This document shows positions 11,813 through 50,030 of a stretch of DNA of 64,000 nt, piece by piece (positions within the stretch are counted from its first letter, which is position 1; every line of letters begins with the position of its first letter). The stretch lies in assembly GCA_041493035.1 (NCBI GenBank), contig JBGPYB010000004.1, forward strand, positions 1,465 to 65,464, in the 5' to 3' direction. A program made the position numbers and the translations under genes. The stretch comes from Vicinamibacteria bacterium. GTDB taxonomy: Bacteria; Acidobacteriota; Vicinamibacteria; Fen-336. Under the pieces are notes generated by a model. That model worked only from the letters and a program-made list of their open reading frames with translations. It made no database searches and had not been told where the DNA came from.

Positions 11813-12277
11813 ATGTTGTCGACCTTGGACGCAAGAGCGACGAATCCTCGGGCACGCGAGATCTGGGCGCGGACGAAGCTTCACGTCTGGCCCGAGCGGT
11901 ACGTGCTGGCCAGCCTGCCGCTCGATCGTGCCGCCGCCGCCGCTGCGCTCATCGGGTCGCGCGCCGACGGCTTTGCCGCCCTCGTCGTCGAGCGTGACGA
12001 GGTCTCTGTCACCGTCGCTGAATCGGCGTGGACGGGGAGCGCTCTGGCCCCCGGGGCTCGCGTCTCGGGTCCGTTCCGTGCGATCACCCTCGACATCGAC
12101 GTCGATCTGGACGTCTGTGGCTACCTTGCGCCGGCCGCGACGCTCCTGGGCGAAGCTGGAGTCTCCATCGTCCCGCAGTGCGCCTTCCTGAAGGACCATC
12201 TCCTGGTTCACGAGGAGAAGCTGGAGATAGCCGTCGGCGTTCTGGACGACTGGATTCGCTCCTGCCGGCGGCTATAG
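11813..12277 (+). CDS. ACT-like domain protein (DUF2241-type), hypothetical
   Basis: 154-aa ORF divergent from the kinase gene. C-terminal ITLDIDVDLDVCGYLAPAATLLGEAGVSIVPQCAFLKDHLLV resembles ACT-type small-molecule-binding proteins. Confidence 0.45.
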   Translation: MLSTLDARATNPRAREIWARTKLHVWPERYVLASLPLDRAAAAAALIGSRADGFAALVVERDEVSVTVAESAWTGSALAPGARVSGPFRAITLDIDVDLDVCGYLAPAATLLGEAGVSIVPQCAFLKDHLLVHEEKLEIAVGVLDDWIRSCRRL

Positions 12278-12994
12278 GGAGCGCCCGCCCAGCGAGCAGA
12301 GATCGGAAATCGCGAGGGGTTCCCGGGTCACGAAGCCTTCGCCGAACTCGACACCGATGCGTTGTCCCTGTCGCCGCGCGGCCAGCTCCATGTTCGCGCG
12401 GAAGAGGTCGAGGGGGACGGCGACCGCCTCGCCGGCCGTCGGGGCGAACTGGCTCGCGAAAGCCCCGATGGCCTTCATCTTGGTCTTCCACACCGACGTG
12501 ACGTCGACCACGAAGGTCGGATGAACCTCCACGGCCTCCGTGGTGCTCGGCGCGTAGATCAACTTCCGCGGCCGAAACGCCGGGCCCAGATCGGGGCGGT
12601 AGTTGCGCAGCCCCGCCAGAAAGCTCGCGTCGTACACGATCCGACTGGCCGCGGTGTGGTCGGGGTGCCGCTGCTCCCAGTGTTGCAGCAGGACGACCGC
12701 GGGACGCAGCCGCCGGATCGCGGCGACGAGGGGATCCTTGTGCTCGGGAACGACGGCGAGGAGGCCGTCGGGGAGCCCGAGGGACTCCCGATGAGCGGCG
12801 CCAAGAATGCGCGCGGCATCGGCGGCCTCGGCCGCGCGCGTCTCCGGCGTTCCGCGGGTCCCGGACTCGCCGCGCGTGAGATCGATCATCGCCACGCGCC
12901 GGCCGCGGGCGGCCTCGAGAGCCAGAGTCCCGCCCATCACCAGCTCCGCGTCGTCGGGATGCGCACAGACTGCCGCAATGTCGAAATCAGCCAC
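12272..12994 (-). CDS. bshB1: Bacillithiol biosynthesis deacetylase BshB1 (PIG-L/LmbE family)
   Basis: AHPDDAE zinc motif, LmbE fold length. Directly downstream of bshA with an 8-nt overlap. Confidence 0.75.
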   Translation of the reverse strand: MADFDIAAVCAHPDDAELVMGGTLALEAARGRRVAMIDLTRGESGTRGTPETRAAEAADAARILGAAHRESLGLPDGLLAVVPEHKDPLVAAIRRLRPAVVLLQHWEQRHPDHTAASRIVYDASFLAGLRNYRPDLGPAFRPRKLIYAPSTTEAVEVHPTFVVDVTSVWKTKMKAIGAFASQFAPTAGEAVAVPLDLFRANMELAARRQGQRIGVEFGEGFVTREPLAISDLCSLGGRSL

Positions 12995-14111
12995 GCGCCA
13001 TCACCCTCTCGTAGAAGCGCTCGTATTGCGAGACGATCCGGTCGGCGCCGAAGAGGGACTCGGCGCGGCGCCGGCCGGCGCTCCCCATCTCGCGGCGCCG
13101 TTCGTCGTTCTTCAGGATCTCCAGCGTTCGAGCGGCCATCCCCTCGACGTCGCCGACGGGCAGGAGGAAACCGGTCTCGGTGTGCTGCACGACCTCCGGG
13201 AGGCCCCCTGCGTCGGAGCCGACGACGGGCACACCGCACGCCATGGCCTCGAGTGCCGACAGACCGAAGGACTCGAGCTCCGAAGGCAACAGGAACACGT
13301 CGGCCATTCCCACGATCTCCTCGACGCTTTCCTGCGTACCGAGGAAGCGGACCCGGTCCTGGATCCCCAGACGGCGCGCGAGGGCCTGTGCGGAAGACCG
13401 CTCGGGTCCTTCACCGACCATCAGCAAGACCGCCGGCGCCTCGCGGGTGACGCGGTCGAGGATCCGCACGACGTCGAAGACGCGCTTCACCGGCCGGAAG
13501 TTGGAGATATGGACGAGGATCTTCTCCTCCGGCTTCGCGAAGGCGGCGCGGTCCTTGTAGGCGCGGTTCGGCGAATAGTCGGAAAGGTCGATGAAGTTGT
13601 GGATCGTCTCGATATCGTTCTTGATCTGGAATTCCTGGAGCGTCATCTTCCGAAGGAACTCCGACACGGCCGTGACGCCGTCGGAGCGTTCGATGCCGAA
13701 GCGCGTGATCTCGAAGAAAGACCGATCCTGGCCCACGAGGGTGACGTCTGTGCCGTGAAGCGTCGTGACGAGCTTCGGCGCTTCGGTCCCGAGCATCTGC
13801 TGTGCGAGAAATCCGGCGATGGCGTGGGGGATCGCGTAGTGAACGTGGAGCAGATCGAGATCATGCTCCCGCGAGACCTCGGCCATCTTCGCCGCGAGAG
13901 CCAGGTCGTGGGGGGGATATTCGAAGAGGACGTAGGACGACACGTCCACCTCGTGGAACGAGATGTTCTGATGAAAGTCTCCGAGCCGGAACGGGAGGCG
14001 GTAGGAGATGAAGTGGATCGTGTGGCCCCGTCGCGCAAGCTGCTTTCCCAGCTCGACGGCGACCGCGCCGGATCCTCCCACGGTCGGATAGCAGGTGATG
14101 CCGATGTTCAC
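12987..14111 (-). CDS. bshA: N-acetyl-alpha-D-glucosaminyl L-malate synthase BshA (GT4 glycosyltransferase)
   Basis: Near full-length collinearity with BshA (NIGITCYPTVGGSG, HVHYAIPHA, VTTLHGTD, FLLPSELESFGLSALEAMACGVPVVGSDAGGLPEVV). GTG at 14111 overlaps the bshC stop (GTGA). Confidence 0.8.
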   Translation of the reverse strand: MNIGITCYPTVGGSGAVAVELGKQLARRGHTIHFISYRLPFRLGDFHQNISFHEVDVSSYVLFEYPPHDLALAAKMAEVSREHDLDLLHVHYAIPHAIAGFLAQQMLGTEAPKLVTTLHGTDVTLVGQDRSFFEITRFGIERSDGVTAVSEFLRKMTLQEFQIKNDIETIHNFIDLSDYSPNRAYKDRAAFAKPEEKILVHISNFRPVKRVFDVVRILDRVTREAPAVLLMVGEGPERSSAQALARRLGIQDRVRFLGTQESVEEIVGMADVFLLPSELESFGLSALEAMACGVPVVGSDAGGLPEVVQHTETGFLLPVGDVEGMAARTLEILKNDERRREMGSAGRRRAESLFGADRIVSQYERFYERVMARG

Positions 14112-15787
14112 AGGTAGATCACCTGATGTCCCGTGGCCCACGGGTCGAGGCGTTCGCCAATCGTGTCCACGACCGAGGCGCCGTGGCGGCAGAGCAGGCC
14201 GATGAAGCCGAGGCCCCGTTCCTGGAAGGCTCCGCCGGGGAAAAGCGCATCCCGGGTGCGACGAATGCGATCGGCACGCACCTGGTCCCTCTTCTTGAGG
14301 GCCCGCGTCGCTTTCTCGCGGAGCGTTTCGACCTGGTGCAGCGCCCGCCCCCGCGCCGCGTCAGCGGCCGCGCGGAGCGTCGGATCCAGGGCTGCGAGCC
14401 GGTTCTCCACGTCGGTCAGGTCTCGTTCGATCGACTCGCGGGCACGGGCGAAGGCTCCCTCCACTTCCGGGTAGGCCTCCCGTGCCCATTGCGCCACGAG
14501 AGCCTCGGGATCCCCCTGCAAGTCGGACAGCGCGAGGGCCTCCGCCTCGAGGACGCGGGCGTGCCCCGGCTCCACGAGGGTCGCCCCGGGACGCGGAAGA
14601 AGAGGCGAGCGGGGGATACCGAAATGAGCGTACGACGGGCCGATCTGCGCGTGGTAGGCGATCTCCGCCGGGCCCCCGACGTAACCGGCCGTGGGAAGCA
14701 AGTGGTCCTGGGCCAGAGGGCGAAGAAGCACCCCCGGACTCCACGCGGCTGGCTCCCGTTCGAGGAGGACCGCCGCATCCTCGATCGGGATGCGCCGCCC
14801 GACGCCGCGCACCTCGACGTCCCCGTTCTGAAGGCCGAGAGACCGACGCTCGCCGTCCATCACCACGAAAAGGTTGAGGAAGCCGGGGCGCACGGGGACC
14901 TGCTGGTGATAGCCGGCCGCGACCAGCCGCGCCCCCACGTCGGCGGCGAGACGAGACGTGGGTGATTGCTCTCGGATCTCGCGGGCGAGGACCGGAGCCA
15001 TCAGCGCTTTCAATTCCGGATCTGACGGGTCGAGGAAGACCAGGCCTGGAAAGACCGACGAGAGGAACGCGGCGAAGGCCCCTGAGAGCGTGGCGCCGGG
15101 GGCGTAACACTCGCTGAGGCGCCCAAGCATCGCGTCACGGAACGGGCTGTCGGGCAGACAGCGGCGCAGTTCGTCCACCAGACCTGTGACCGTGTCGTCG
15201 AGGACGATGCGCGACGCAGGCTGTCCCGCGGGCTCCCGGTGGGGCTCGTAGCGGATCGTGCGGAGCCGCCCGCTGTCATCGAGAGCGTTGACCGAACGCA
15301 CCTCGGCGAAGTCGTGGTCGTCGGAGGCGACCCAGAAGACGGGCACCACCGGCGCGCCGCGCTTGGCCTGGAGCGCGGCGGCCACCTTGATGGCGGCAAG
15401 GGCCTTGTAGAGCACGAAGAGCGGCCCTCCGAAGAGGCCCGCCTGCTGGCCTGTAACGACGACGACGGCGCCTGGCTCGCGGAGCGTGCGTGCGGCGGCG
15501 GCCGCTTGTCTAGCACCCCGTTGCTCCTGCTGCGGCGTGAGCGCAGCGACGAGCGCCTCGCGCTGACGGGGATGGTCAGCCGCTCGGCCGGCGCTCAGGG
15601 CGAGAGCGTCGAGATTCCACCGAGCGCCGTCGTAGAAGGGCCGAGCAGAAGGGCTCCCGGTCAGATAGTCACGGAAGAGCGCGTTCGGAGGGTGATGAAA
15701 CGCCCCGTAGTCCAGGACCGGGGAGGGGCGGTCCGCCATGAGGCCGTCATTATAGGGCATCGGTCCAGGGTACGACGGCGTCCCCAT
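14108..15787 (-). CDS. bshC: Bacillithiol biosynthesis cysteine-adding enzyme BshC
   Basis: About 540-560 aa with N-terminal VVTGQQAGLFGGPLFVLYKAL (BshC QQxGL..GP signature). Position upstream of bshA-bshB1. Start may be 15787 or 15739. Confidence 0.7.
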   Translation of the reverse strand: MGTPSYPGPMPYNDGLMADRPSPVLDYGAFHHPPNALFRDYLTGSPSARPFYDGARWNLDALALSAGRAADHPRQREALVAALTPQQEQRGARQAAAAARTLREPGAVVVVTGQQAGLFGGPLFVLYKALAAIKVAAALQAKRGAPVVPVFWVASDDHDFAEVRSVNALDDSGRLRTIRYEPHREPAGQPASRIVLDDTVTGLVDELRRCLPDSPFRDAMLGRLSECYAPGATLSGAFAAFLSSVFPGLVFLDPSDPELKALMAPVLAREIREQSPTSRLAADVGARLVAAGYHQQVPVRPGFLNLFVVMDGERRSLGLQNGDVEVRGVGRRIPIEDAAVLLEREPAAWSPGVLLRPLAQDHLLPTAGYVGGPAEIAYHAQIGPSYAHFGIPRSPLLPRPGATLVEPGHARVLEAEALALSDLQGDPEALVAQWAREAYPEVEGAFARARESIERDLTDVENRLAALDPTLRAAADAARGRALHQVETLREKATRALKKRDQVRADRIRRTRDALFPGGAFQERGLGFIGLLCRHGASVVDTIGERLDPWATGHQVIYL

Positions 15788-15890: not shown

Positions 15891-18317
15891 ATGAGCGAAA
15901 AAAGCGGCTCCGCCGAGCAGATGCCGGCCACTATTGGCCGCTACCAGGTCCAGGACAGCATTGGATATGGCGCCATGGGCGCTGTTTACAAGGCCTTCGA
16001 TCCGCTCATCAAGCGCACCCTCGCCATCAAGACCATCCGCCTCGACATCCCGCGCCAGAGCCCCCAGTACAAGTCCTTCATCGAGCGCTTCTACCACGAG
16101 GCTCGAATCTCGGGGACACTCTCCCATCCGAACATCGTCACCCTCTTCGACATCGGCGAGGAGGGGGGGATTCCCTACCTGGCGATGGAGTTTGTCGAGG
16201 GAGAGACCATCGCTTCTCTCGTGGAGAAGGGAATCCGCTTCCCTCCCGAGAAGGTCATCAGCCTCGTCAGCCAGATTGCCTCGGCCGTCGACTACGCCCA
16301 CACCAAGGGTGTGATCCACCGGGACATAAAGCCGTCGAACCTCATCCTCTTCGACGAGGATCGCGTCAAGGTTACCGACTTCGGGATTGCGAAGCTGGTG
16401 GACTCCGAGATGACGCAGGCGGGGACGCTCCTTGGGACGCCGTCGTACATGTCTCCCGAACAGGCCATGGGGGAGAAGCTCGACGGGCGGAGCGACATTT
16501 TCTCCCTGGGAGTCTGCGCCTTCGAGATGCTGGCGGGGGAGCAGCCTTTCCCCGGCGCCAACGTCACCTCGATCCTGTACAAGCTCGTTCACGTCCCGCC
16601 GGTCGAGCCTCCGAACCTCGAAATGAACGGCCTCGTTCCCCAGAAGTGGCACGAGGTGTTCGGCAAGGTTCTCGCCAAGAAGCCCGACGATCGATACCAG
16701 ACGGCCGGCGCCTTCGTGCAGGACCTTGAGTACTGCCTCGGCTCGTGGTTCGGCTCGGCCGTGGGCGACGAGACGATCCTCGAGAGTGCGCCGGCCAGTC
16801 CGGCCGCTCCCGTCGAGGAGCCGAAAGAGGCGCCGTCCGCGCCAGCCGTGATCAAGACCAGCCAGACCGCAAAGTTGGTCCCGCCGGGCGAGGAGGTGAC
16901 CGCGGCGATTCCCGCGGCACAACGCCCCTCTTCGCCGCCGGTCGCCCCGGGTCCGCCGCCACCTTCGCCGGCGCGTCCCGCGAAGGCGGCTCCGGCGCAA
17001 CCACCCGCCGCCGAACTCCCCGCCACGGTCTACATGAAGGCTGTCTCCGCCGAAGAGGGTGCTTTTCCGACGCAGCGAGTCAAGGCGCCGGAAGTGACGA
17101 TCGCAACGCGTCCTCCGGCACCCCCGGCAGCTCCGCTCGCAGCGAAGGTGGCGCCGCCGCGAGACACTGCCTCGACCCTGAAGTCGGCGGTGTCGGACGT
17201 CACCGTAGCCAATCGGGCCTCACCGCCGGTGCCGCCGCCACCTCCCGTCGTCGCGAAAACGTCGCCCCCCGCGCCGCCAAAGCGCGCGCCGCCACCTCCC
17301 GCTGCGCCGGTGCGAGTGCCCGCGACGTCCTACCCGCGCGAGCCTGGTCCGCCACGAAAGGGCGTGCCGGTCGCCCTCGTCGTGGGTGGCGCAGCGCTGC
17401 TCTTGTTGCTCATCTTCGGAGTCGGTGTCTTGCTGTTCCTGAGAAGCCGCCAGGCGGAGCCATCGCCCTCGCCTGTGGCAGAAGCCTCTCCTACGCCGGG
17501 CCCCAGTGCGACGCCGCCGCGGGTCGCGACCGGCACCCTCGTCATCGATACTCAGCCCACCGCAGCCTCGATCAGCGTCAACGGAGAGGCGAAAGGTCTT
17601 TCTCCCATCGAGTTGCCGGGCCTGCCCGTTGGGAACTACGACGTTCGCGCCGAGATGAAGGGCTTCGAACCCCGCAACCAGACGGCGACTGTGACGACCG
17701 ACGCCCCGCGTGCGGAGGTTCACTTCGTCCTCTCTCGCGTCGCTCCGGTCATGGGCTCGGCCGAGATCGTCTCGACCCCATCGGGTGCCGCTGTATCTGT
17801 GGACGGCACCCGGAGCGGGCAGACGCCGGTTGCCGACCTAAAGCTGCGGGCAGGAAACCATCGTGTCGAGTTGGCCAAGGACGGCTACGAGCCTTGGGAA
17901 GGGAACGTCTCGGTCGAGGCTGGAAAGAAGTCGAACGTCGACGCCGCTCTCAAGGCGACGGCGAAGGCGACACCGACGCCGACGCCCAAGCCGGAGGTGG
18001 ACCCGAACCACGCGTACGAGAACACGGCGGCCGACGTGGATGTGCTGGCCAAGAAGAAGGTCCCCAGTGTCTCGCCGGAGTACCCGAAGAGGAACGCCCC
18101 GAACCTCAAGTCGGGGCAGTCGGCCTCCGTGGCCGGCTCCTTCATCGTGACCGAGAAGGGCGAGGTTGAGGACATCAAGGTCCTGGAGTCCGCCGGGCGC
18201 GTCATCGACGATGCCGTCCTGGCCGCCGTGCGCCAATGGAAGTACGAACCCGCCCAGAAGCAGGGGCAGAAGGTCAAGGTCCGCATCAATTTCAAGCATA
18301 CCTTCCTGCAGGGTTAA
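15891..18317 (+). CDS. Hanks-type Ser/Thr protein kinase fused to Pro-rich linker, TM helix, two PEGA domains and a TonB C-terminal domain
   Basis: Kinase motifs IGYGAMGAVYKA, VAIK lysine region, HRDIKPSNLIL, DFGIAKL, SPEQ. TM LVVGGAALLLLLIFGVGVLLFL. PEGA repeats (GTLVIDTQP..., AEIVSTPSGAAVSVDG...). TonB_C-like tail (EYPKRNAPNLKSGQSASVAGSFIVTEKGEVEDIKVLESAGRVIDDAVLAAVRQWKYEP). Confidence 0.85.
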   Translation: MSEKSGSAEQMPATIGRYQVQDSIGYGAMGAVYKAFDPLIKRTLAIKTIRLDIPRQSPQYKSFIERFYHEARISGTLSHPNIVTLFDIGEEGGIPYLAMEFVEGETIASLVEKGIRFPPEKVISLVSQIASAVDYAHTKGVIHRDIKPSNLILFDEDRVKVTDFGIAKLVDSEMTQAGTLLGTPSYMSPEQAMGEKLDGRSDIFSLGVCAFEMLAGEQPFPGANVTSILYKLVHVPPVEPPNLEMNGLVPQKWHEVFGKVLAKKPDDRYQTAGAFVQDLEYCLGSWFGSAVGDETILESAPASPAAPVEEPKEAPSAPAVIKTSQTAKLVPPGEEVTAAIPAAQRPSSPPVAPGPPPPSPARPAKAAPAQPPAAELPATVYMKAVSAEEGAFPTQRVKAPEVTIATRPPAPPAAPLAAKVAPPRDTASTLKSAVSDVTVANRASPPVPPPPPVVAKTSPPAPPKRAPPPPAAPVRVPATSYPREPGPPRKGVPVALVVGGAALLLLLIFGVGVLLFLRSRQAEPSPSPVAEASPTPGPSATPPRVATGTLVIDTQPTAASISVNGEAKGLSPIELPGLPVGNYDVRAEMKGFEPRNQTATVTTDAPRAEVHFVLSRVAPVMGSAEIVSTPSGAAVSVDGTRSGQTPVADLKLRAGNHRVELAKDGYEPWEGNVSVEAGKKSNVDAALKATAKATPTPTPKPEVDPNHAYENTAADVDVLAKKKVPSVSPEYPKRNAPNLKSGQSASVAGSFIVTEKGEVEDIKVLESAGRVIDDAVLAAVRQWKYEPAQKQGQKVKVRINFKHTFLQG

Positions 18318-19637
18318 GTGTCGGCGCACTCCATGGCGAAGATCATCGTCAACCCGACCTCGTCCTCGCGGCGGGAGATCGCCCTTCCTCGTACGCTTCT
18401 CTCCATCGGCCGAGACCCGGGAAACGATCTGGTCCTGCCCGACGCGATGGTCTCGCGGCGACACGCCGTGATCGAGTTGCGTGGGAGCCAGTACTTCATT
18501 CGCGACTGCAACTCCTCCAACGGGTCGCTCGTCAATGGGGACCGCGTGAACGAACGGAGCCTCCGCGACGGCGACCTCGTCGCCATCGGCACGGCCCGAC
18601 TCCTCTTCCGCGACGACCTCGACGTTGAGGCCGGCGGCAAGGTGGTGCAGCATCCCTCGGCGCCGCGCCTCAACTGCCCCGCCTGCGGCGCGGATCATCG
18701 CAAGGGCGACCAGTTCTGCCGCCAGTGCGGCGGGGCATTGGCCCCCAGCCTTCCGCCGAAGGCCGTCTGCGTCTCCTGCGGAACCGCGGTTCTTCTCCCG
18801 GCGCGCTTCTGCACGGCCTGCGGCGGAGCCATCGCCGCTGCGCCCGGAGAGGCGGGCCCTGCTCCCGATGCGGAGGCTTCCGACCCTGCGCCACCGCCGG
18901 CCGCTCCCCCGGCTCACGCACCGGAGGCGGTCGTGGCGCCGAAGCGGTTCGTGTCGGCCGAGCCGCCAACGGCGCTGCCGTCGATTCCCGATCGGCCGCC
19001 GGTCGCCGTTGTGGAGCCGCGACCCGACGAGATCAAGGTCAAGCGCCCGCCGACACCTGCGGAGTCTTCAGTCCCGCCGCGGCCCGCGGCTCAGCCCTCT
19101 CGCGACGCCGCCGCCCGCGCGCCGATCGCCGGGCCGCAAAAGGCCAAGAAGTTCCCCGACACCTTTCGCGAGCGACAACCCACGCCATCGTCCTCCGAGC
19201 CCGCGGGGGCCGGCCGCCGCCTTCTCGCGGCGCTCGTCGACCACGCGATCATCGGGGTGATTCAGGGGGCCGTTCTCGCCCCCGTCCTCTGGTACTGGTG
19301 GTCGCGGCCCATTCCGTCGCAGGCGTCTCAGGTTCCCTTTGCCCCGGTGGCGGTCTCCCTCGCCCTCGTTCCCGTGGCCATCGTCCTGGGCTGCCTCTAC
19401 TTCATCTATGGCTGGGGCGTGCGGGGCGCCACCCCCGGGAAGCGGCTCCTTGGGATCGTCGTCGAGGGGCAGGACGGGGCGTTTCCGATCGGCGCCTCCC
19501 GGGCGGCCGCGCGGTTCCTGGGCTATCTGCTCTCGGGCGCATTCCTCGGCATCGGCTACGCGATGATCCTGTTCGGTGGCCGGGGACTCCACGACAGGAT
19601 CGCTGGTACCCGAGTGATGCCGCGAGAGAGGACCTGA
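18318..19637 (+). CDS. FHA domain / double zinc ribbon / RDD-family membrane protein
   Basis: N-terminal FHA (LSIGRDPGNDLVLPDAMVSRRHAVIE...NGSLVNG). Two CxxC-x-CxxC ribbons. C-terminal RDD domain (RRLLAALVDHAIIG ... RGLHDRIAGTRV) with TM helices. Start GTG 18318 or ATG 18333, abutting the kinase stop. Confidence 0.8.
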   Translation: MSAHSMAKIIVNPTSSSRREIALPRTLLSIGRDPGNDLVLPDAMVSRRHAVIELRGSQYFIRDCNSSNGSLVNGDRVNERSLRDGDLVAIGTARLLFRDDLDVEAGGKVVQHPSAPRLNCPACGADHRKGDQFCRQCGGALAPSLPPKAVCVSCGTAVLLPARFCTACGGAIAAAPGEAGPAPDAEASDPAPPPAAPPAHAPEAVVAPKRFVSAEPPTALPSIPDRPPVAVVEPRPDEIKVKRPPTPAESSVPPRPAAQPSRDAAARAPIAGPQKAKKFPDTFRERQPTPSSSEPAGAGRRLLAALVDHAIIGVIQGAVLAPVLWYWWSRPIPSQASQVPFAPVAVSLALVPVAIVLGCLYFIYGWGVRGATPGKRLLGIVVEGQDGAFPIGASRAAARFLGYLLSGAFLGIGYAMILFGGRGLHDRIAGTRVMPRERT

Positions 19638-40502: not shown

Positions 40503-41354
40503 ATGATGAGACGATCCGGCTCCTCCGCGGTCTTTGTCTTATTGCTGCTCTGTGAGGGCTGTGGCCTCGCCGATAAGCTGACCGGTCCCGACACCCTCAC
40601 GATCCAGAAGTTCGTGGCGACCCCGAGCCAGATCGATCCTGGCTCGACGGTCATGCTGATCTGGGACGTGGCGGGCGCCGAATCCGTACAGATCAGCGGC
40701 GGCGTGGGGACGGTGGGGGCGAAGGGTTCGCATCCCGTCCGCCCGAACGCCACGACGGACTACCTGCTCACGGCGCGAGCCGGAACGTCGTCCGCCACGG
40801 CGACGGTGGAGGTGCTCGTGTCGGGCAGCGGGCCGGCGCCTTCTCCGAGCCCCGAGCCCTCTCCGTCGCCCAGCCCGTCACCATCGCCGAGCCCGTCCCC
40901 CTCACCCAGTCCATCGCCGTCACCGAGCCCGTCGCCTTCACCCAGCCCATCGCCCTCACCTTCTCCGAGCCCGGAGCCATCCCCTTCTCCGCAGCCGGTG
41001 AGCTGTGGTGTCCCTGTCAATCTCGCAGGAAGTTGTGGGCTGACGATCCGGAAACCCGACGCGCTTTCGTCAGCGGAGTGCATAGAGCTGACCGACATTC
41101 GAACGAGCAGCGACTGCCCCGTGAGTTTTGGCGTCCCACTCTCGGTGAGCTTCGCGGTGTCGGCGTCGTCGAGCCACAGCTTCACGTGGAAGCAGGCCCC
41201 CGGCAAGAACGACGTCCTGACCCCGGCTTCCGGGACCGTCTCCGGCACCGGAGCCACGAGCGTCACGCTCTCCGACATCGTCCTCGACAGCGCCCTGTCC
41301 ATCGAAGTGATCTACGGCGACAAGGTCTACCTGGTCTTCAGCCTCGAGCACTGA
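40503..41354 (+). CDS. Secreted/lipoprotein candidate with (Ser-Pro)n linker and C-terminal Cys-containing domain
   Basis: Signal peptide MMRRSGSSAVFVLLLLCEGC. About 25 consecutive SP/EP dipeptides. Four Cys in the C-terminal domain. Confidence 0.65.
   Translation: MMRRSGSSAVFVLLLLCEGCGLADKLTGPDTLTIQKFVATPSQIDPGSTVMLIWDVAGAESVQISGGVGTVGAKGSHPVRPNATTDYLLTARAGTSSATATVEVLVSGSGPAPSPSPEPSPSPSPSPSPSPSPSPSPSPSPSPSPSPSPSPSPSPSPEPSPSPQPVSCGVPVNLAGSCGLTIRKPDALSSAECIELTDIRTSSDCPVSFGVPLSVSFAVSASSSHSFTWKQAPGKNDVLTPASGTVSGTGATSVTLSDIVLDSALSIEVIYGDKVYLVFSLEH
40836..40995 (+). repeat. Imperfect tandem hexanucleotide repeat (CCSAGC/CCGTCR) encoding (Ser-Pro)n
   Basis: Directly visible as agcccgtca / ccatcgccg iterations within the lipoprotein CDS. 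Confidence 0.7.
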
Positions 41355-43239: not shown

Positions 43240-43911
43240 TTGGCTCGCTCTCTCGTCATCGCGATCGATGGACCCTCGGGAGCGGGGAAGTCGACGGCGG
43301 GGCGCGCCCTCGCGTCTCGCCTCGGCTACGTGTTTGTCGACACCGGCGCCATGTACCGCGCGCTGGCGCTCAAGGCCCTTCGCGCCGGCATCCCGTTGGA
43401 GGATGGCGAGGCACTGGGGCGCCTCGCCCACGCCTCGAAGATCGAGCTGACCGCCGGCGGGCGCGGCGTCTCCCTGGATGGCGAGGACGCGACCACGGGA
43501 ATTCGTACCCGCGAGGTCAGCGCCGCGGCCTCGCGCGTCTCGGTCCATCCCGCGGTGCGGCGTGAGATGGTGGTGCGCCAGCGCGAGATGGGGGGACGCG
43601 GCGGCGTCGTTCTGGACGGCCGCGACATAGGGACAGCCGTCTTCCCGGCCGCTGACGTGAAGTTCTACGTCGACGCCGATCCCGTCCGTCGCGCGCGGCG
43701 CCGGGCCGACGAGCTGTCGGCCGCCGCCTCGCCCTTCGACCTGGCCGCCATCGAGCGCGACATCCGCGACCGGGACCACGCCGACATGACCCGGCCCGAT
43801 TCCCCGTTGACCCGGGCGCCTGATGCGATCCTTCTCGACACGACCGACCTCACGCCCGAACAGGTCCTCGATCGGATGTGGGAGGTCGTCTCGGCGAAAC
43901 GGCGGGAGTAG
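43240..43911 (+). CDS. cmk: Cytidylate kinase
   Basis: P-loop IAIDGPSGAGKST, DTGAMYRA motif. Apparent TTG start. Confidence 0.85.
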   Translation: MARSLVIAIDGPSGAGKSTAGRALASRLGYVFVDTGAMYRALALKALRAGIPLEDGEALGRLAHASKIELTAGGRGVSLDGEDATTGIRTREVSAAASRVSVHPAVRREMVVRQREMGGRGGVVLDGRDIGTAVFPAADVKFYVDADPVRRARRRADELSAAASPFDLAAIERDIRDRDHADMTRPDSPLTRAPDAILLDTTDLTPEQVLDRMWEVVSAKRRE

Positions 43912-43920
43912 TGCCCCCGG

Positions 43921-45522
43921 CTACAGTCGCAGTTTGGCGAACTCGTCGAAGTTCGTGATTCCCTGGGTGACGAGACTCAGGCATCGCTCGCGGAGGGTCT
44001 TCATCCCCGCGCCGACGGCGAGGGACTCGATCTCCGCGTGGGGAAGGCCGTTCTGGACGGCGGAACGCACCTCGGGCGCGCCGCTCATCACCTCGAAGAT
44101 CGCCCGCCGGCCGCGATAGCCCACCTTGTTGCAGCTCGGGCATCCCTTCCCGCGGAAGAACTTGAGCTTGGCGGCCTCCTCGGCGCCGATCCCATGGTGG
44201 GCCAGTGTCTGGGGGGCCGGAGGCTCCGACGGCTCGCGACAGATCGTGCAGATCTGCCGCACCAGGCGCTGGCACGTCGCCGCGGCGAGCGACCCGGCCA
44301 GGAGCTGAGGCGGCACTCCCATCTCCAGGAGCGAGGTCACGCCCTGGCCAGCGGTCTGCCCCGTCACGACGGCGACCACCAGGACGCTCGACGCGAGCTG
44401 AGTCGCAAGGAGCCCCGTGGCCTTGTCGGGGATCGACGAGAGCACGATGACCTCAGGGCGCACCGCCACCACCGAGCGGAGCGTCTCCTCCATCTTCAGC
44501 CCCTTGGTGTCGGCCTCGACCTCGACCTGGCGGACGCCCTCGAGGGGCCAGTGGACCGGAGACTCGAGAGAGACCACATCCCGCTGCGCCTGCACCAGGA
44601 AGTTCATGATCGAGTAGAGCGTCGTCCCGGCCCCGCTGAAGACCGGCGCCGTCACCAGGATGAAGCCGAAGGACGCCCGCAGCTCTTCGAGGAGGCGCAC
44701 GCGGTCGTCGATCTCGAGGCCCAGCGACGTAAAGTCCTTGATGAAGGTGGCGCGGTTGATGAGCTTGATCGTCGCGCTCGTTCCGTGAGAGGTCGGCAGG
44801 GTCTGGGCCACGAGATCGAAGTCGGCGTCGGCCAGGCGACCGCTCGTACGCGAGGTCTGAGGGCGGTTCTCCTTGGACGTGTCGAGGCGGAAGGCCTCGA
44901 AGAGCTTCTGCGTCAGCGATGGCTGGAAGCGCTTGGGGATGGGATCCACGCGGAAGAAGAAGCCGTCGATCCTGTACTTGACCGAGACGGCGTCCTCCGT
45001 CGGCTCGATGTGGACGTCGGAAGCTCCCTTGCGGGCGGCCAGCGAGAGGATGTATTGGATGATCGCGTCGGGTCCGCTCTGCTCCCAGACGGGGCTGGCG
45101 GCATACTCCATCCCGACTGTGTCGGTCAAGGGATTCACACCCTGGCTCTTGAGGGCCGCCTGGATGTCCTCAGGGCGCACCATCTTGCGGTCCACGAGGA
45201 TCTCGCCGATGCGCTTGCCGGTGGCTTTCTGCTCGACGAGCACCTCGAGGAGCTGAGGAGTCGTGATTTTCTTCATCCGGATGAGGATGTCGCCGAGGCG
45301 GTCCTTGCTCCGGCTCAACGTCTGGATCTCGTCCAGCAGCCGAGGAGGCGCGTGCTTCCAGAACTCCTGCTTGTATTTCTCGCTGGCGTCGCAGAAGCAC
45401 CGGAAGCAGAATGGACACAGCTTCGTCGGGTTCTTGGGGTCGTCCGAACACCAGACGGCGTTCAGGGCATCGAACTCACCCAGGCAGTTCCAGCACGTCG
45501 CGAGATAGTTCTCAGCGGCCAC
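43921..45522 (-). CDS. GspE/PilB-family secretion ATPase homolog with degenerate catalytic motifs, MshEN-type N-domain and extra N-terminal Cys-rich finger
   Basis: Collinear with GspE. Walker A reads LVTAPVFSGAGTTLY (Lys to Ala), Walker B EVIVLSSIPD (Glu to Ser), His box absent. C-terminal CxxC...CxxC retained. Two RLGxxL...Q 24-mer MshEN motifs. Confidence 0.75.
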   Translation of the reverse strand: MAAENYLATCWNCLGEFDALNAVWCSDDPKNPTKLCPFCFRCFCDASEKYKQEFWKHAPPRLLDEIQTLSRSKDRLGDILIRMKKITTPQLLEVLVEQKATGKRIGEILVDRKMVRPEDIQAALKSQGVNPLTDTVGMEYAASPVWEQSGPDAIIQYILSLAARKGASDVHIEPTEDAVSVKYRIDGFFFRVDPIPKRFQPSLTQKLFEAFRLDTSKENRPQTSRTSGRLADADFDLVAQTLPTSHGTSATIKLINRATFIKDFTSLGLEIDDRVRLLEELRASFGFILVTAPVFSGAGTTLYSIMNFLVQAQRDVVSLESPVHWPLEGVRQVEVEADTKGLKMEETLRSVVAVRPEVIVLSSIPDKATGLLATQLASSVLVVAVVTGQTAGQGVTSLLEMGVPPQLLAGSLAAATCQRLVRQICTICREPSEPPAPQTLAHHGIGAEEAAKLKFFRGKGCPSCNKVGYRGRRAIFEVMSGAPEVRSAVQNGLPHAEIESLAVGAGMKTLRERCLSLVTQGITNFDEFAKLRL

Positions 45523-45639
45523 GGCTCACGAGGCTCCTGCTGGCGACAATCAACCACAATTATACCTCATAACTCCTTTTGGATCAAAGCACTGCAAACG
45601 TTGACCCTCAGTCGAGCCGTGTGGTAGTTTGGCCTTGCC

Positions 45640-46731
45640 TTGAAGAAAACACCGCTCAACGAGGCCCATCGGGCGTCGGGCGCCAAGATGGTCCCCTTCG
45701 GCGGTTGGGATATGCCCGTCGAGTACTCGGGGCTCATCGCCGAGCACAACGCGGTCCGGAAGGCGGCTGGCCTCTTCGACGTATCTCACATGGGGGAGTT
45801 CGAGATCGAAGGCCCGGGCGCCGTCGCCTTTCTGCAGCGCGTGGCGAGCAACAACGTGGCCAAGCTCGCTGACGGCCAGGCCCAGTACTCGGCGCTGCCC
45901 ATGCCGAGCGGCGCGCCGGTCGATGACGTCATCCTGTACCGGCGTGCTGCCGACCGATACCTGATGGTGGTCAACGCGGGGAATCTCGAGAAAGACTTTC
46001 TCTGGCTCCAGGCCCAGCGCCCGGAAGCGTGCACCCTCCGTGATCGCAGCGATGACTACGCTCTCCTCGCGCTCCAGGGGCCGCGCGCACAGGAAATCCT
46101 GGGAGGGCTCACGACCCTTGACCTTCCCGGCATCGCCTTTTACCACTTTGCCGAAGGGGAGGTGGCCTCGCACCCCGCGACCGTGGCGCGTACGGGCTAC
46201 ACGGGGGAGGATGGCTTCGAGTTGTTCGTCGCCCCCGACAGGGCCGTCGCGCTCTGGCACGCTCTCCTCGAGGCGGGGCGCGAGCGGGGTCTCATCCCTG
46301 CCGGCCTCGGAGCCCGTGACACGCTCCGGCTCGAAGCTCGGATGTGCCTCTACGGCAACGACATGGACGAGACGACCTCGCTGGTCGAGGCCGGCCTCGG
46401 CTGGATCGTGTCGCTGGACGAAGGGAAGGGAGACTTTCCCGGCCGCGCCATTCTGGAGTCGCAGAAGAAGAACGGTGTCTCGCGGAAGCTCGTAGGGTTC
46501 GAGATGGTCGGTCGTGGGATCGCCCGCCACGGTTATCCGGTCTTCGTGGGCGAAGACTCGGCCGGCAAGGTCTGCTCCGGCACCTACGCTCCCTTCCTCC
46601 AGAAGAGCATCGGCCTCTGCTATCTGCCGACGCCCCGCGCGGGCGTCGGCACGGCCTTCGACGTCGAGGTACGGGGTCGCCGAGTGGCGGCCCGGGTCGT
46701 CCCCACGCCTTTCTACAAGCGGCCGCGCTAG
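45640..46731 (+). CDS. gcvT: Glycine cleavage system T protein (aminomethyltransferase)
   Basis: [30 protein letters not shown]-terminus, full length. Apparent TTG start. Confidence 0.9.
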
Positions 46732-46749
46732 AGCCGCGCGAGGAGCGCC

Positions 46750-47136
46750 ATGGTTCCCGACAACCTTCGCTACACCAAGGACCACGAATGGATCCGCGTC
46801 GAGGGAGACCGCGGCACCATCGGCATCACCGACTACGCCCAGAACCAGCTCGGGGACGTGGTCTTCATCGAGTTGCCGGCCGTGGGGCGCGCCGTGTCCG
46901 CCGGCGAAACCTTCGGCACGGTGGAGTCGGTCAAGGCGGTCTCGGAGCTCCTCTCTCCCGTGAACGGCGAGGTGTTGGAGATAAACGGCGCCCTCGTGTC
47001 GGCTCCCGAAGCCGTGAACACCGACCCCTACGGCAAGGGATGGATGCTGGTCGTGAAGATTGAGGACGCCGCCCAGGTCGCGGGCCTCATGGACGCCGCC
47101 GCCTATCAGGCCCTGGTCGAGAGCGAGGGGAAGTGA
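46750..47136 (+). CDS. gcvH: Glycine cleavage system H protein
   Basis: Lipoyl-lysine motif ESVKAVSEL, 128 aa. Confidence 0.9.
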
Positions 47137-50030
47137 ACGAGCCGTCCCCCGTGTCGCGCGGGTCCGAAACGGGCAACCTCCTGGCGCCCTGCGACACGTT
47201 CCTGGGGAGGCACATCGGTCCCTCGGACGCCGAGATTGCGGAGATGCTGGCGAGCCTGGGCGCGGCGTCCCTCGACGGTCTCATGGCGGAAACCGTGCCC
47301 GGCAGCATCCGTCGCGGGCCCATGAGGCTTCCCGAGCCACGCGGCGAACACGAACTCCTCGACGAGCTTCGAGCCATGGCTCAGCGGAACGAGGTCTTCC
47401 GGTCGCTCATCGGGATGGGCTACCACGGCTGCATCCTCCCCGCCGTCATCCAGCGCAACATCCTGGAAAACCCCGCGTGGTACACCGCCTACACGCCGTA
47501 CCAGGCCGAGATCGCCCAGGGGCGCTTGGAAGCCCTCCTGAACTACCAGACGATGATCGCCGATCTCACGGCGCTTCCGCTGGCCAATGCGTCTCTTCTC
47601 GACGAAGCGACGGCGGCCGCAGAGGCCATGCACATGTGCCACGCCCTGGCGGGCGCGGGCAGAAAGGTCTTCTTCGTCGCGGCCGACTGCCATCCGCAGA
47701 CGTTGGCCGTCGTGCGCACCCGCGCCGCACCTCTCGGGATCGAAGTCCGCGTCGGCGATCCGGCGACGGTCGACCTGGTCGCTCAGAACGCCTTCGGCGT
47801 TCTCGTCCAGTACCCGACGACCGACGGTCGCGTGACCGACTACGCCGGTTTGGCTGGCCGCGTTCACGAGGCGGGCGCTGTCTTCGTCGTGGCGGCGGAC
47901 CTTCTGGCACTCACGCTGTTGCGCCCGCCCGGGGAGTTCGGCGCGGACGTGGCCGTGGGCTCGTCACAGCGCTTCGGCGTACCGATGGGCTTCGGCGGCC
48001 CTCACGCTGCGTTCCTGGCCACCAAGGACGAGTTCAAGCGGCAGATGCCGGGGCGAATCATCGGTGCCTCGAAGGATGCCGAGGGACGTCTCGCCTACCG
48101 CATGGCCCTTCAGACCCGCGAGCAGCACATCCGCCGCGAGAAGGCCACGAGCAACATCTGCACGGCGCAGGTTCTTCTGTCGGTCATGGCCAGCATGTAC
48201 GCCGTCTATCACGGCCCCGAGGGGCTGCGGCGCATCGCGCACCGGATCCACGCCCTGACTGCGCTGCTGGCCGCGGGCTTGAAGCGCCTTGGTTACGACG
48301 TGGGCTCGGCGCCTTTCTTCGACACGCTCCGGGTGCGCCTTGCCCCGAGCCAAGGAGCCAAGGTGCGCTCCGAGGCTCGCGCCCGCCGCATCAACCTTCG
48401 CGCCTACGATGACGGCTCGGTCGGTATCGCGCTCGACGAGACGACGCTCTCTCGGCATCTCGGTCGCCTCTTCGAGGTCTTCGCCGACGGCCATCCTGTT
48501 TCGTTCTCGGTCGACGACCTGATCCGTGAGGCCAACTTCGACTTCGCGCCACCCCTCGCCCGCACGAGCCCCTTCCTAACCCACGAGGTCTTCGCACGCC
48601 ACCACCCGGAGCACGAGATGCTCCGTTACATGCAGCGTCTCCAGGAGCGGGACCTCACCCTCGCGACGTCGATGATCCCGTTGGGCTCGTGCACGATGAA
48701 GCTCAACGGCAGCTCGGAGATGATCCCGGTCACCTGGCCCGAGTTCGCGCGGCTCCATCCCTTCGCGCCGGTCGAACAGACCCAGGGGTACGCGGAGCTC
48801 TTCCGGCAACTCGAAGCGTGGCTCGCCGAGATCACGGGCTTTGCCGCGGTATCGCTCCAGCCCAACGCCGGCTCGCAAGGTGAGTACGCGGGGCTCTTGA
48901 CGATCCGGGCCTATCACGAGAGCCGCGGCGAGGGGGATCGCACAGTCTGCCTGATTCCCGTCTCGGCGCACGGAACGAACCCGGCGAGCGCGGTGATGGC
49001 GGGGTTCAAGGTCGTCGCCGTCGCGTGCGACGAGCGCGGCAACATCGACGTGGCCGACCTGCGGGCGAAGGCCCTTGCCCACAAGGCCGATCTGGGTGCG
49101 TTCATGGTCACGTACCCGTCGACCCACGGCGTCTTCGAGGAAGCGATCCGGGAGATCTGCGCCATCGTCCACGAGAACGGCGGCCAGGTGTACATGGACG
49201 GCGCGAACATGAACGCCCAGGTCGGCATCACCAGCCCCGGCACCATCGGCGCCGACGTATGCCACCTGAACCTCCACAAGACGTTCTGCATCCCCCACGG
49301 CGGCGGAGGCCCGGGGATGGGACCGATCGGCGTGGCGTCGCACCTGGCGCCGTTCCTGCCGGGGCATCCCGTCACGGGGATGGGTGGGCCGCGCTCGTTC
49401 GGCACCGTCTCCGCTGCGCCCTACGGGAGCCCGAGCATCCTCACGATCTCGTGGGTCTACATCGCTCTCATGGGGAGCGCCGGGCTCAAGAAGGCCACCG
49501 AGGTCGCGATACTCAACGCGAACTACATGGCGAAGCGTCTCGAGGGACATTACCCGGTGCTCTACAGGGGCTCCCGCGGCCGCGTCGCCCACGAGTTCAT
49601 CCTGGACGCGCGTCCGTTCAAGGCCGCGGGCATCGAGGTGGACGACATCGCGAAGCGCCTCATGGACTACGGCTTCCACGCGCCCACGATGTCGTTTCCG
49701 GTGGCGGGGACGCTGATGATCGAGCCGACCGAGAGCGAGTCGAAAGCCGAGCTGGACCGTTTCTGCGACGCCATGATCGCCATCCGCGGGGAGATCCGCG
49801 CCGTCGAGAACGGCACGATCGACCGCCAGAACAACCCGCTGAAGCGCGCTCCCCACACGATGCACGCCGTGACCGCGAGCGATTGGGACCGGCCGTACAG
49901 CCGCGAGCAGGCCGCCTTCCCGGCGCCCTGGGTGCGGGCCCACAAGTTCTGGCCCTGGGTCGCCCGCATCGACAACACCTACGGCGACCGTAACCTCGTC
50001 TGCACCTGCCCCCCGGTCGAGAGTTACTAG
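47133..50030 (+). CDS. gcvP: Glycine dehydrogenase (decarboxylating), single-chain GcvP
   Basis: 965 aa, both P-protein halves present, PLP Lys region ([22 protein letters not shown]). Confidence 0.92.

Follow-up and report, generated by a model that had tools for sequence, protein, structure and literature searches.

A 64,000-nucleotide stretch of contig JBGPYB010000004.1 from a Vicinamibacteria bacterium (assembly GCA_041493035.1), hereafter the window, carries at positions 43921-45522 of its minus strand a gene related to pilB and gspE, which encode ATPases of type IV pili (T4P) and type II secretion systems (T2SS). This gene is the subject of the present analysis: its 533-residue product has lost the catalytic motifs of these ATPases and is predicted to bind cyclic di-GMP (c-di-GMP). 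The coding sequence, taken from the list of open reading frames (ORFs), begins with a GTG codon and ends with a stop at 43921-43923. As the initial annotation reported, it lies between cmk (43240-43911, plus strand) and gcvT (45640-46731, plus strand). The third-position GC content (GC3) reaches 0.90 in the called frame of this 67% GC sequence, which identifies a real gene; the long antisense ORF that overlaps it (44038-45627, plus strand) is the usual artefact of high-GC genomes. An identical protein (P0001) is present in public data.

From its N terminus the protein is made of a cysteine-rich module, a two-helix connector, a predicted MshEN_N module, a flexible linker, and the N2D-like and C-terminal (CTD) domains of a PilB/GspE-type ATPase, all encoded on the minus strand. 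In the AlphaFold2 (AF2) model the connector (aa 47-72; 45307-45384) forms helices 48-56 and 60-71, and K51, F54, W55, A58 and P59 are invariant columns. The linker (aa 128-149; 45076-45141) has a predicted local distance difference test score (pLDDT) below 50 at residues 128-144 and corresponds to a gap in the alignment with the long-form proteins described below. The N2D-like domain (aa 150-262; 44737-45075), detected by Pfam T2SSE and by Foldseek matches to PilB and PilF, keeps the YRIDG motif (R184, I185, D186, G187), whose R184 is invariant across the broad family. The CTD (aa 263-533; 43924-44736) has a RecA-like ATPase fold according to Pfam, alignments and Foldseek, and is catalytically degenerate.

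By fold, the protein is a member of the T2SSE superfamily. Pfam T2SSE (PF00437) matches aa 154-528 with E=2.1e-60, and the AF2 model (pLDDT 81.9) reaches TM-scores, normalised to the target, of 0.87 with 5tsh_E and 0.88 with 5zfr_B in the comparison with Geobacter PilB and Thermus PilF; in this model the PilB/GspE N2D+CTD fold is kept. The NCBIfam equivalogs for PilB (TIGR02538, 260.4 bits) and GspE (TIGR02533, 258.3 bits) are matched far below their respective cutoffs of 675.65 and 630.25. Many orthologs are labelled PilB or GspE by JGI. Since the protein falls short of both equivalog cutoffs and of every catalytic criterion, such an annotation is unsuitable. The initial annotation also went too far in describing an end-to-end alignment with T2SS/T4P ATPases: a subdomain named MshEN_C is missing, and nothing in PilB or GspE corresponds to aa 1-72.

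Fate of the catalytic motifs

Aligned residue by residue with Geobacter PilB, Thermus PilF and a diverse set of 150 representatives, the protein bears out the initial reading of a Walker A motif without lysine, a Walker B glutamate replaced by serine and a vanished His box. In the Walker A region (aa 291-301; 44620-44652), TAPVFSGAGTT replaces TGPTGSGKTTT through the substitutions G292A, G295F, K298A and T299G; the alignment adds the precision that A298 is the equivalent of the lysine and G299 that of the threonine. The Asp box (aa 318-325; 44548-44571) reads SLESPVHW instead of T[IV]EDP[IV]EY and keeps only E320, which is invariant. Walker B (aa 355-366; 44425-44460) reads RPEVIVLSSIPD instead of DPD[IV]IM[IV]GEIRD, its core having changed from imiGEiRD to IVLSSIPD with the loss of the catalytic glutamate to serine. 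The region of the lost His box (aa 375-391; 44350-44400) reads QLASSVLVVAVVTGQTA where xAxLTGHLVLSTLHTNDA would be found in an active enzyme; tGHlvlsTlHTnda has become SSVLVVAVVTGQTA, and both histidines are absent.

This loss is fixed and is no peculiarity of a single genome. Among 5.8 billion proteins searched, 120 orthologs of full length were listed, with 66-100% identity; the organism labels among them are few and all designate Vicinamibacteria. At position 298 these orthologs have alanine (94), serine (20), glycine (5) or valine (1), never lysine, and an intact GxxxxGK[ST] motif was found in none of the 120. The survey was widened to a broad family by profile search against 1.84 billion representatives at 50% identity. 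Of all the proteins collected, 154 are full-length members with the N-terminal cysteine module, and the motif is equally absent from these, even from those that share just 28-37% identity with the target. The altered motifs are in turn conserved among the orthologs, as TAPVF[NS]GAxTT, SLE[SA]P[VI]HW and RPEVxxLSSxPD. One 71% identical ortholog (P0091) has SPVFNGAKTT, with a lysine at the equivalent of the Walker A threonine (299), one residue off the canonical position; it likewise lacks the Walker A glycines.

The conservation of the remodelled P-loop (P293, F295, G297, T300, T301 and Y303), together with the invariant E320, suggests that the pocket still does something. The protein could therefore be an NTPase, or a binder of another nucleotide, that operates through a non-canonical active site. 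Such an activity is very unlikely in view of what every member lacks: the lysine and threonine of Walker A, the glutamate of Walker B, the second glutamate of the Asp box and both histidines of the His box.

The degenerate core is nevertheless under selection. Between close ortholog pairs, dN/dS ranges from 0.04 to 0.21 for the whole protein and from 0.05 to 0.22 for the dead N2D+CTD alone; such low values in a dead core indicate purifying selection, and hence a maintained pseudoenzyme. The loss of the catalytic motifs and the overlapping antisense ORF could also be expected from a decaying pseudogene, or from an annotation artefact of a high-GC genome. The probability of this is practically nil: about 70 genomes at the species level carry the full-length ORF, identity averages 74% per column over 45 orthologs, and these two results together with dN/dS rule the pseudogene out. 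The GC3 and the conservation of the promoter and start codon point the same way. In four loci from metagenome-assembled genomes (MAGs; L043, L050, L056 and L060) the gene seems truncated or frameshifted in the match regions, which probably reflects assembly errors and not real pseudogenisation.

The predicted c-di-GMP module and the cysteine sites

The initial annotation had recognised two 24-residue repeats of the MshE type in the N-terminal part of the protein, and both are indeed present in the predicted c-di-GMP-binding module MshEN_N (aa 75-127; 45142-45300). Motif I (RLGDILIRMKKITTPQLLEVLVEQ, aa 75-98) and motif II (RIGEILVDRKMVRPEDIQAALKSQ, aa 104-127) are separated by KATGK (aa 99-103), a spacer of the canonical five residues. 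The NCBIfam model NF053729 (c-di-GMP_motif, MshE-related, 53 positions) matches precisely aa 75-127 with 56.5 bits, above its cutoff of 38 (E=1.8e-15). In MshEN domains, six residues of each 24-residue motif (R, L, G ... L, L, Q) contact the ligand (PMC5013675). All have their equivalents here, R75, L76, G77, L91, L95 and Q98 in motif I and R104, I105, G106, I120, L124 and Q127 in motif II, the only changes being conservative replacements of leucine by isoleucine. These twelve positions are at least 95% conserved in the 120 orthologs, except R104, which is either R or K. The predicted fold of the N-domain, a four-helix bundle in the model, superimposes best on the c-di-GMP-bound MshE N-domain (5htl) and on PilF GSPII-B (8pdk), and the closest sequence matches of the module are two domains, GSPII-B and GSPII-C, of Thermus thermophilus PilF.

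The agreement with MshEN models is partial. Pfam PF05157 (MshEN) has no match in the 533-residue protein, and in a long-form relative (P0158) it aligns to aa 132-214, C-terminal to the c-di-GMP motifs, that is, on MshEN_C. This alpha/beta subdomain of about 90 residues is the part deleted in the short form, where the disordered linker at aa 128-149 takes its place. According to Wang et al. (2016, PMC5013675), MshEN_C is dispensable, since the isolated MshEN_N (residues 1-62) binds c-di-GMP with a dissociation constant (KD) of 0.35 uM. Deviations also concern the glycine of the turn and the hydrophobic residue that follows, at motif positions 10-11: motif I has K84-K85, and in motif II the target has K113, where 51 of the 120 orthologs have G, and the next residue is M or L. 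These positions are structural and do not contact the ligand. Comparable departures occur in PilF, where GSPII-B binds c-di-GMP at 6 nM despite K and L at motif position 1 and where GSPII-C is also a binder (PMC11731258); in the present alignment, GSPII-C also carries a lysine at the position equivalent to I19 of MshE. On these sequence grounds, c-di-GMP binding at aa 75-127 is strongly predicted.

The deviations K84 and K85 could also be taken as the mark of a structural or regulatory paralog of the pilus machine that does not bind c-di-GMP at all. Its MshEN_N would then be a docking domain, as in the N1 domain of XpsE/GspE, and the protein would occupy the PilM/PilC platform as an inert subunit or compete there with PilB. 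Failure to bind is known for many MshEN-like domains, for instance those of XpsE (PMC5013675) and PilF GSPII-A (PMC11731258), one family representative has degenerate motifs, and T4P ATPase genes adjoin some of the long-form loci. This alternative is unlikely: the twelve ligand-contacting positions are far better conserved in the 120 orthologs than in the known non-binders, NF053729 scores above its cutoff, and the best structural matches are binders with their ligand.

The second remarkable module precedes the c-di-GMP motifs. The N-terminal cysteine module (aa 8-46; 45385-45501) follows the pattern C10-x2-C13-x11-C25-x-[D/H/C]27-x8-C36-x2-C39-x2-C42-x-C44 and is a predicted metal site. Its seven cysteines are invariant in the 120 orthologs, their spacings are fixed, and residue 27 is D in 98, C in 35 and H in 21 of the 154 members, with no other residue ever observed; the eight potential ligands are enough for two tetrahedral metal sites. 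It is also the best-conserved region of the protein: its mean identity to the query is 0.91 among short-form proteins and falls to 0.68 across the broad family, in which the other domains reach only 0.35-0.45. The AF2 model (pLDDT 79-93 over the module) predicts a zinc-ribbon-like fold in which CWNC and CPFC occupy the knuckles of two beta-hairpins. Two zinc ions are the default reading; the CPxCxxCxC arrangement in an aromatic environment could possibly hold an iron-sulphur (Fe-S) cluster.

This eight-ligand Cys7+(D/H/C) module is a new domain and the hallmark of the family. No Pfam match was found for it at E<=10 in 20 members; the N-terminal 72 residues correspond to no family in Pfam or NCBIfam, to no sequence relative in the PDB by profile search and to no structural match. 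A word-index search with the profile of the module returned only N-terminal fragments of the same family and, at that sensitivity, no other architecture. Among the representatives of the profile search the boundary is sharp: every protein with the module has a degenerate ATPase, whereas those without it are mostly canonical (GPTGSGKT, GE[IM]RD, both histidines), with a few degenerate exceptions. Full-text searches of the literature turned up neither a PilB/GspE-like MshEN protein described as catalytically dead nor a cysteine module of this kind.

The initial annotation considered both cysteine sites as retained. This holds for the tetracysteine zinc motif that belongs to PilB/GspE-type ATPases (C425-x2-C428 ... 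C461-x2-C464, with GYRGR after it; 44131-44250), a predicted zinc site whose four cysteines never vary, either among the 120 orthologs or across the broad family. The N-terminal finger is present as described; given that aa 1-72 have no counterpart in PilB or GspE, it is an acquisition and not a retained feature.

Distribution and genomic neighbourhood

A pattern scan covering one genome per species in 185,579 species yielded 186 relatives. The labels of the best 80 of these 186 designate 76 Acidobacteriota MAGs, three 'uncultured bacterium' and one doubtful 'Clostridia'; as far as found, the family is thus almost restricted to Acidobacteriota. The short form occurs in Vicinamibacteria, including Ca. 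Marinacidobacterales, and a long form of 600-630 residues, 28-37% identical to the target, in Thermoanaerobaculia and allies. Two long-form contigs have a low GC content, L070 (titled Thermoanaerobaculum aquaticum, 37.7%) and L081 (titled Clostridia, 36.7%); their family members cluster with Acidobacteriota sequences, and both taxonomic labels look doubtful. Proteins of about 1000 residues scoring 340-420 bits were considered as closer active relatives or sister groups and rejected, tandem T2SSE domains probably inflating their score. The two that were scanned (P0165 and P0168) have an unusual double-motor architecture, with two complete T2SSE ATPase domains in tandem and canonical motifs in the aligned copy.

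The neighbourhood was compared in loci of about 17 kb each, 60 from Vicinamibacteria and 20 of the long form. In the class Vicinamibacteria, the sole neighbour conserved with the gene is the divergent gcvT-gcvH-gcvP operon (45640-50030, plus strand). Among loci with enough upstream sequence, it is adjacent and divergent in 39/39 of group A and 15/18 of group B, and the pairing persists where protein identity is as low as 43-47%. On the other flank the gene content varies: cmk was found in 13 of 34 group A loci and in 2 of 19 group B loci, in neither case adjacent. Neighbour clustering revealed no conserved downstream operon partner. The downstream genes are variable in group B (AAA_28 kinase, histidine kinase, transposases or SpoVG) and of the housekeeping type in group C (selA, pyk, PBP1, comEC, ftsX).

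The initial annotation had seen no pilus or T2SS genes at the flanks. This can be extended to the ORFs scanned across the whole window, which include no pilus, T2SS or c-di-GMP-turnover genes. More specifically, no platform, pilin or secretin genes (pilC/gspF, pilM/gspL) were found either in these ORFs or in the 60 Vicinamibacteria loci. The long-form loci include three independent arrangements near T2SSE-type genes. In L063, pilB-pilT-pilC lies 2.8 kb downstream. In L066 and L082, the adjoining gene encodes a DUF4388-MshEN-T2SSE protein with intact Walker A and B. In L074 (4215-7790, plus strand), two family members of 571 and about 619 residues stand in tandem, both with the cysteine module and both without Walker A. 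In the shorter of the two, a Pro/Ala/Ser-rich linker replaces the MshEN_C region; P0159 and P0169 probably represent another pair of this kind, and such tandems hint at hetero-oligomers. The other long-form loci show varied housekeeping contexts.

The gene is preceded by a sigma-70-like promoter (45559-45587, minus strand; TTGATC-17-TATAAT, 10 of 12 matches), the only one found by a scan in which 0.1 was expected. Its -35 element and the spacer element AAGGAGTTAT are conserved in the orthologous Vicinamibacteria intergenic regions, and AAGGAGTTAT might bind a regulator or belong to an alternative promoter. The gene is monocistronic, with this promoter of its own. Back to back with it, about 14 nt apart, a putative promoter of the divergent gcvT (45601-45630, plus strand) reads TTGACC-N18-(TG)gTAGTTT, and its elements CGTTGACC and TGTGGTAG are conserved across the group A loci. 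The TTG start codon of gcvT (45640) is only about 10 nt downstream of this element, so that its mRNA would be nearly leaderless in the source genome; the spacing is longer in orthologous loci. Rfam detected nothing in the whole window at the gathering threshold nor in 43700-45900 at E<=1, and thus neither a glycine riboswitch nor any other RNA in the shared intergenic region.

This class-wide pairing raises the possibility that the protein regulates glycine cleavage or one-carbon metabolism. It would sense c-di-GMP and/or a metal or redox signal and modulate the expression of gcvTHP or the activity of the glycine cleavage system, the divergent pair constituting a regulatory unit. In favor of this view, gcv adjacency persists in Vicinamibacteria while the cmk flank does not, the arrangement recurs in L080, a distant long-form locus with 30% identity, the back-to-back promoters carry conserved elements, and no riboswitch was detected as an alternative means of gcv control. 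Such a function is all the same quite improbable: Pfam and NCBIfam scans reveal no recognisable DNA- or RNA-binding domain, and 15 of the 16 long-form loci with enough upstream sequence have no gcv genes nearby, L080 being the one that does. Furthermore, tight packing protects divergent promoters from rearrangement even where the genes have no functional link, and the short-form loci all belong to one class.

The rest of the window is essentially of the housekeeping type (thiG, bshBAC, carAB, argS, uvrC, trpS, scpAB, rluB, hisC, cmk, gcvTHP, mgsA, greA and a thrA-like gene). At 12272-15787 (minus strand), genes for a PIG-L deacetylase, a GT4 glycosyltransferase and BshC in a row would seem to give this acidobacterium a complete cluster (bshB-bshA-bshC) for bacillithiol biosynthesis. 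At 15891-19637 (plus strand), a fusion of a Ser/Thr protein kinase with PEGA and TonB_C domains is followed by a membrane protein with FHA, double zinc ribbon and RDD domains, likely a kinase-FHA signalling pair. The ORF at 40503-41354 (plus strand) encodes a hydrophobic, cysteine-containing, lipoprotein-like N terminus and a long low-complexity repeat, (SP)n / PSPEPSP, which is mirrored by an antisense ORF.

Proposed function of the pseudo-ATPase

The initial annotation proposed a catalytically dead, possibly c-di-GMP-binding pseudo-ATPase as a plausible regulator or receptor, and the loss of the motifs together with the MshE-type module argues in favor of such a protein. The reading preferred here, with a probability of roughly 0.6, is that of a maintained pseudoenzyme of the PilB/GspE type in which ATP hydrolysis, and probably ATP binding, has been permanently lost, and which now serves as a signalling receptor or adaptor. 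MshEN_N (aa 75-127) would bind c-di-GMP, as suggested by its sequence and fold. The Cys7+(D/H/C) module (aa 8-46) would bind two metal ions, or possibly an Fe-S cluster, and may provide a second sensory input or a docking surface. The dead N2D-CTD body, with its PilB fold, zinc tetracysteine and inter-domain motifs, would form an oligomeric scaffold, possibly hexameric, whose conformation or partner binding would shift with ligand occupancy and which would resemble a permanent nucleotide-free state of PilB. The output would be a protein-protein interaction. The likeliest partners would be T4P components (PilB, PilT, PilC or proteins of the PilM type), or else a surface or biofilm pathway further downstream, and a non-pilus target is possible. 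A pilus or surface-behaviour target is favoured by the ancestry of the protein and by the long-form contexts; the divergent pairing suggests a gcv or one-carbon target, with no nucleic-acid-binding domain in support.

Several points weigh against this receptor. The lysines K84-K85 of motif I stand where MshE has G18-I19, and the changes listed for XpsE, a non-binder, include one of the I19R type (PMC5013675). Neither this pair nor the deletion of MshEN_C is disqualifying, because MshEN_N alone binds the ligand and PilF GSPII-B and GSPII-C tolerate deviations. One family representative (P0155) has clearly degenerate MshEN motifs and an intact cysteine module, so that c-di-GMP may not be the universal or primary ligand of the family. 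No pilus gene is found nearby, in the window or in the 60 Vicinamibacteria loci. The T4P adjacency of the long form rests on about 3 independent loci out of 20; with a few T2SSE genes per genome, roughly 1-2% of 16-kb windows are estimated to hold one by chance, and the adjacency is therefore suggestive, not conclusive. Finally, the steps of the mechanism that follow c-di-GMP binding are inferred.

The proposed pseudoenzyme can be compared with several known systems. MshE (Vibrio cholerae VC0405) and MshE-type T4P/T2SS ATPases share its PilB/GspE-type N2D+CTD with the tetracysteine zinc motif. MshE, however, works as an active motor, its Walker A, Asp box, Walker B and His box all intact, and its gene belongs to a pilus operon; the 533-residue protein has lost these four motifs and MshEN_C, has an additional N-terminal Cys7 module and is encoded outside any pilus operon. 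FimX, which regulates PilB, as well as Filp and other degenerate GGDEF/EAL receptors, follow the same logic of a catalytically dead enzyme fold acting as a c-di-GMP-dependent adaptor. Their folds are unrelated to PilB and their degenerate enzyme domain itself binds c-di-GMP, whereas here binding would fall to a separate MshEN_N and the dead domain would serve as output or scaffold. The N-terminal domain of Xanthomonas XpsE/GspE represents the reciprocal situation, with the c-di-GMP residues lost and the ATPase active. In T. thermophilus PilF GSPII-B/C, K, L and P at motif position 1 are compatible with nM-uM binding (PMC11731258); PilF differs by its three complete GSPII domains, C-subdomains included, on an active ATPase.

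The closest functional precedent for a permanently dead PilB is the PilB of M. xanthus, which has the MshEN c-di-GMP motif. When free of nucleotide and deficient in hydrolysis, this PilB transmits a signal to exopolysaccharide (EPS) production that does not depend on pilus assembly (Black et al. 2017, PMC5544727). The M. xanthus protein is bifunctional and has ATPase activity; in the family described here, the signalling-only state would be hard-wired by evolution. No evidence was found that links this family to the Dif/EPS pathway.

A bolder version of the receptor can be considered, in which a probably oligomeric PilB-derived pseudo-ATPase would act as a signalling hub joining c-di-GMP, through MshEN_N, with a metal or redox signal, through the cysteine module and possibly an Fe-S cluster, and would control a non-pilus output, in Vicinamibacteria the gcv operon. 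It is a speculative proposal with little likelihood of being correct in full.

What is new in this family is a predicted c-di-GMP receptor built on a degenerate enzyme scaffold and equipped with a novel accessory domain. MshEN is one of two widespread c-di-GMP receptor modules, and in characterised secretion-type ATPases it is carried by an active motor. If the proposed function is correct, this would be the first family in which the secretion motor itself has been turned into a non-catalytic scaffold, and a natural 'separation-of-function' version of the signalling role proposed for PilB. The family further adds a novel and extremely conserved eight-ligand cysteine domain. It is seemingly a hallmark of two abundant and poorly studied classes of soil and sediment Acidobacteriota, in which c-di-GMP outputs have been little explored, and the conserved pairing with gcvTHP provides a concrete, testable lead to a metabolic output.

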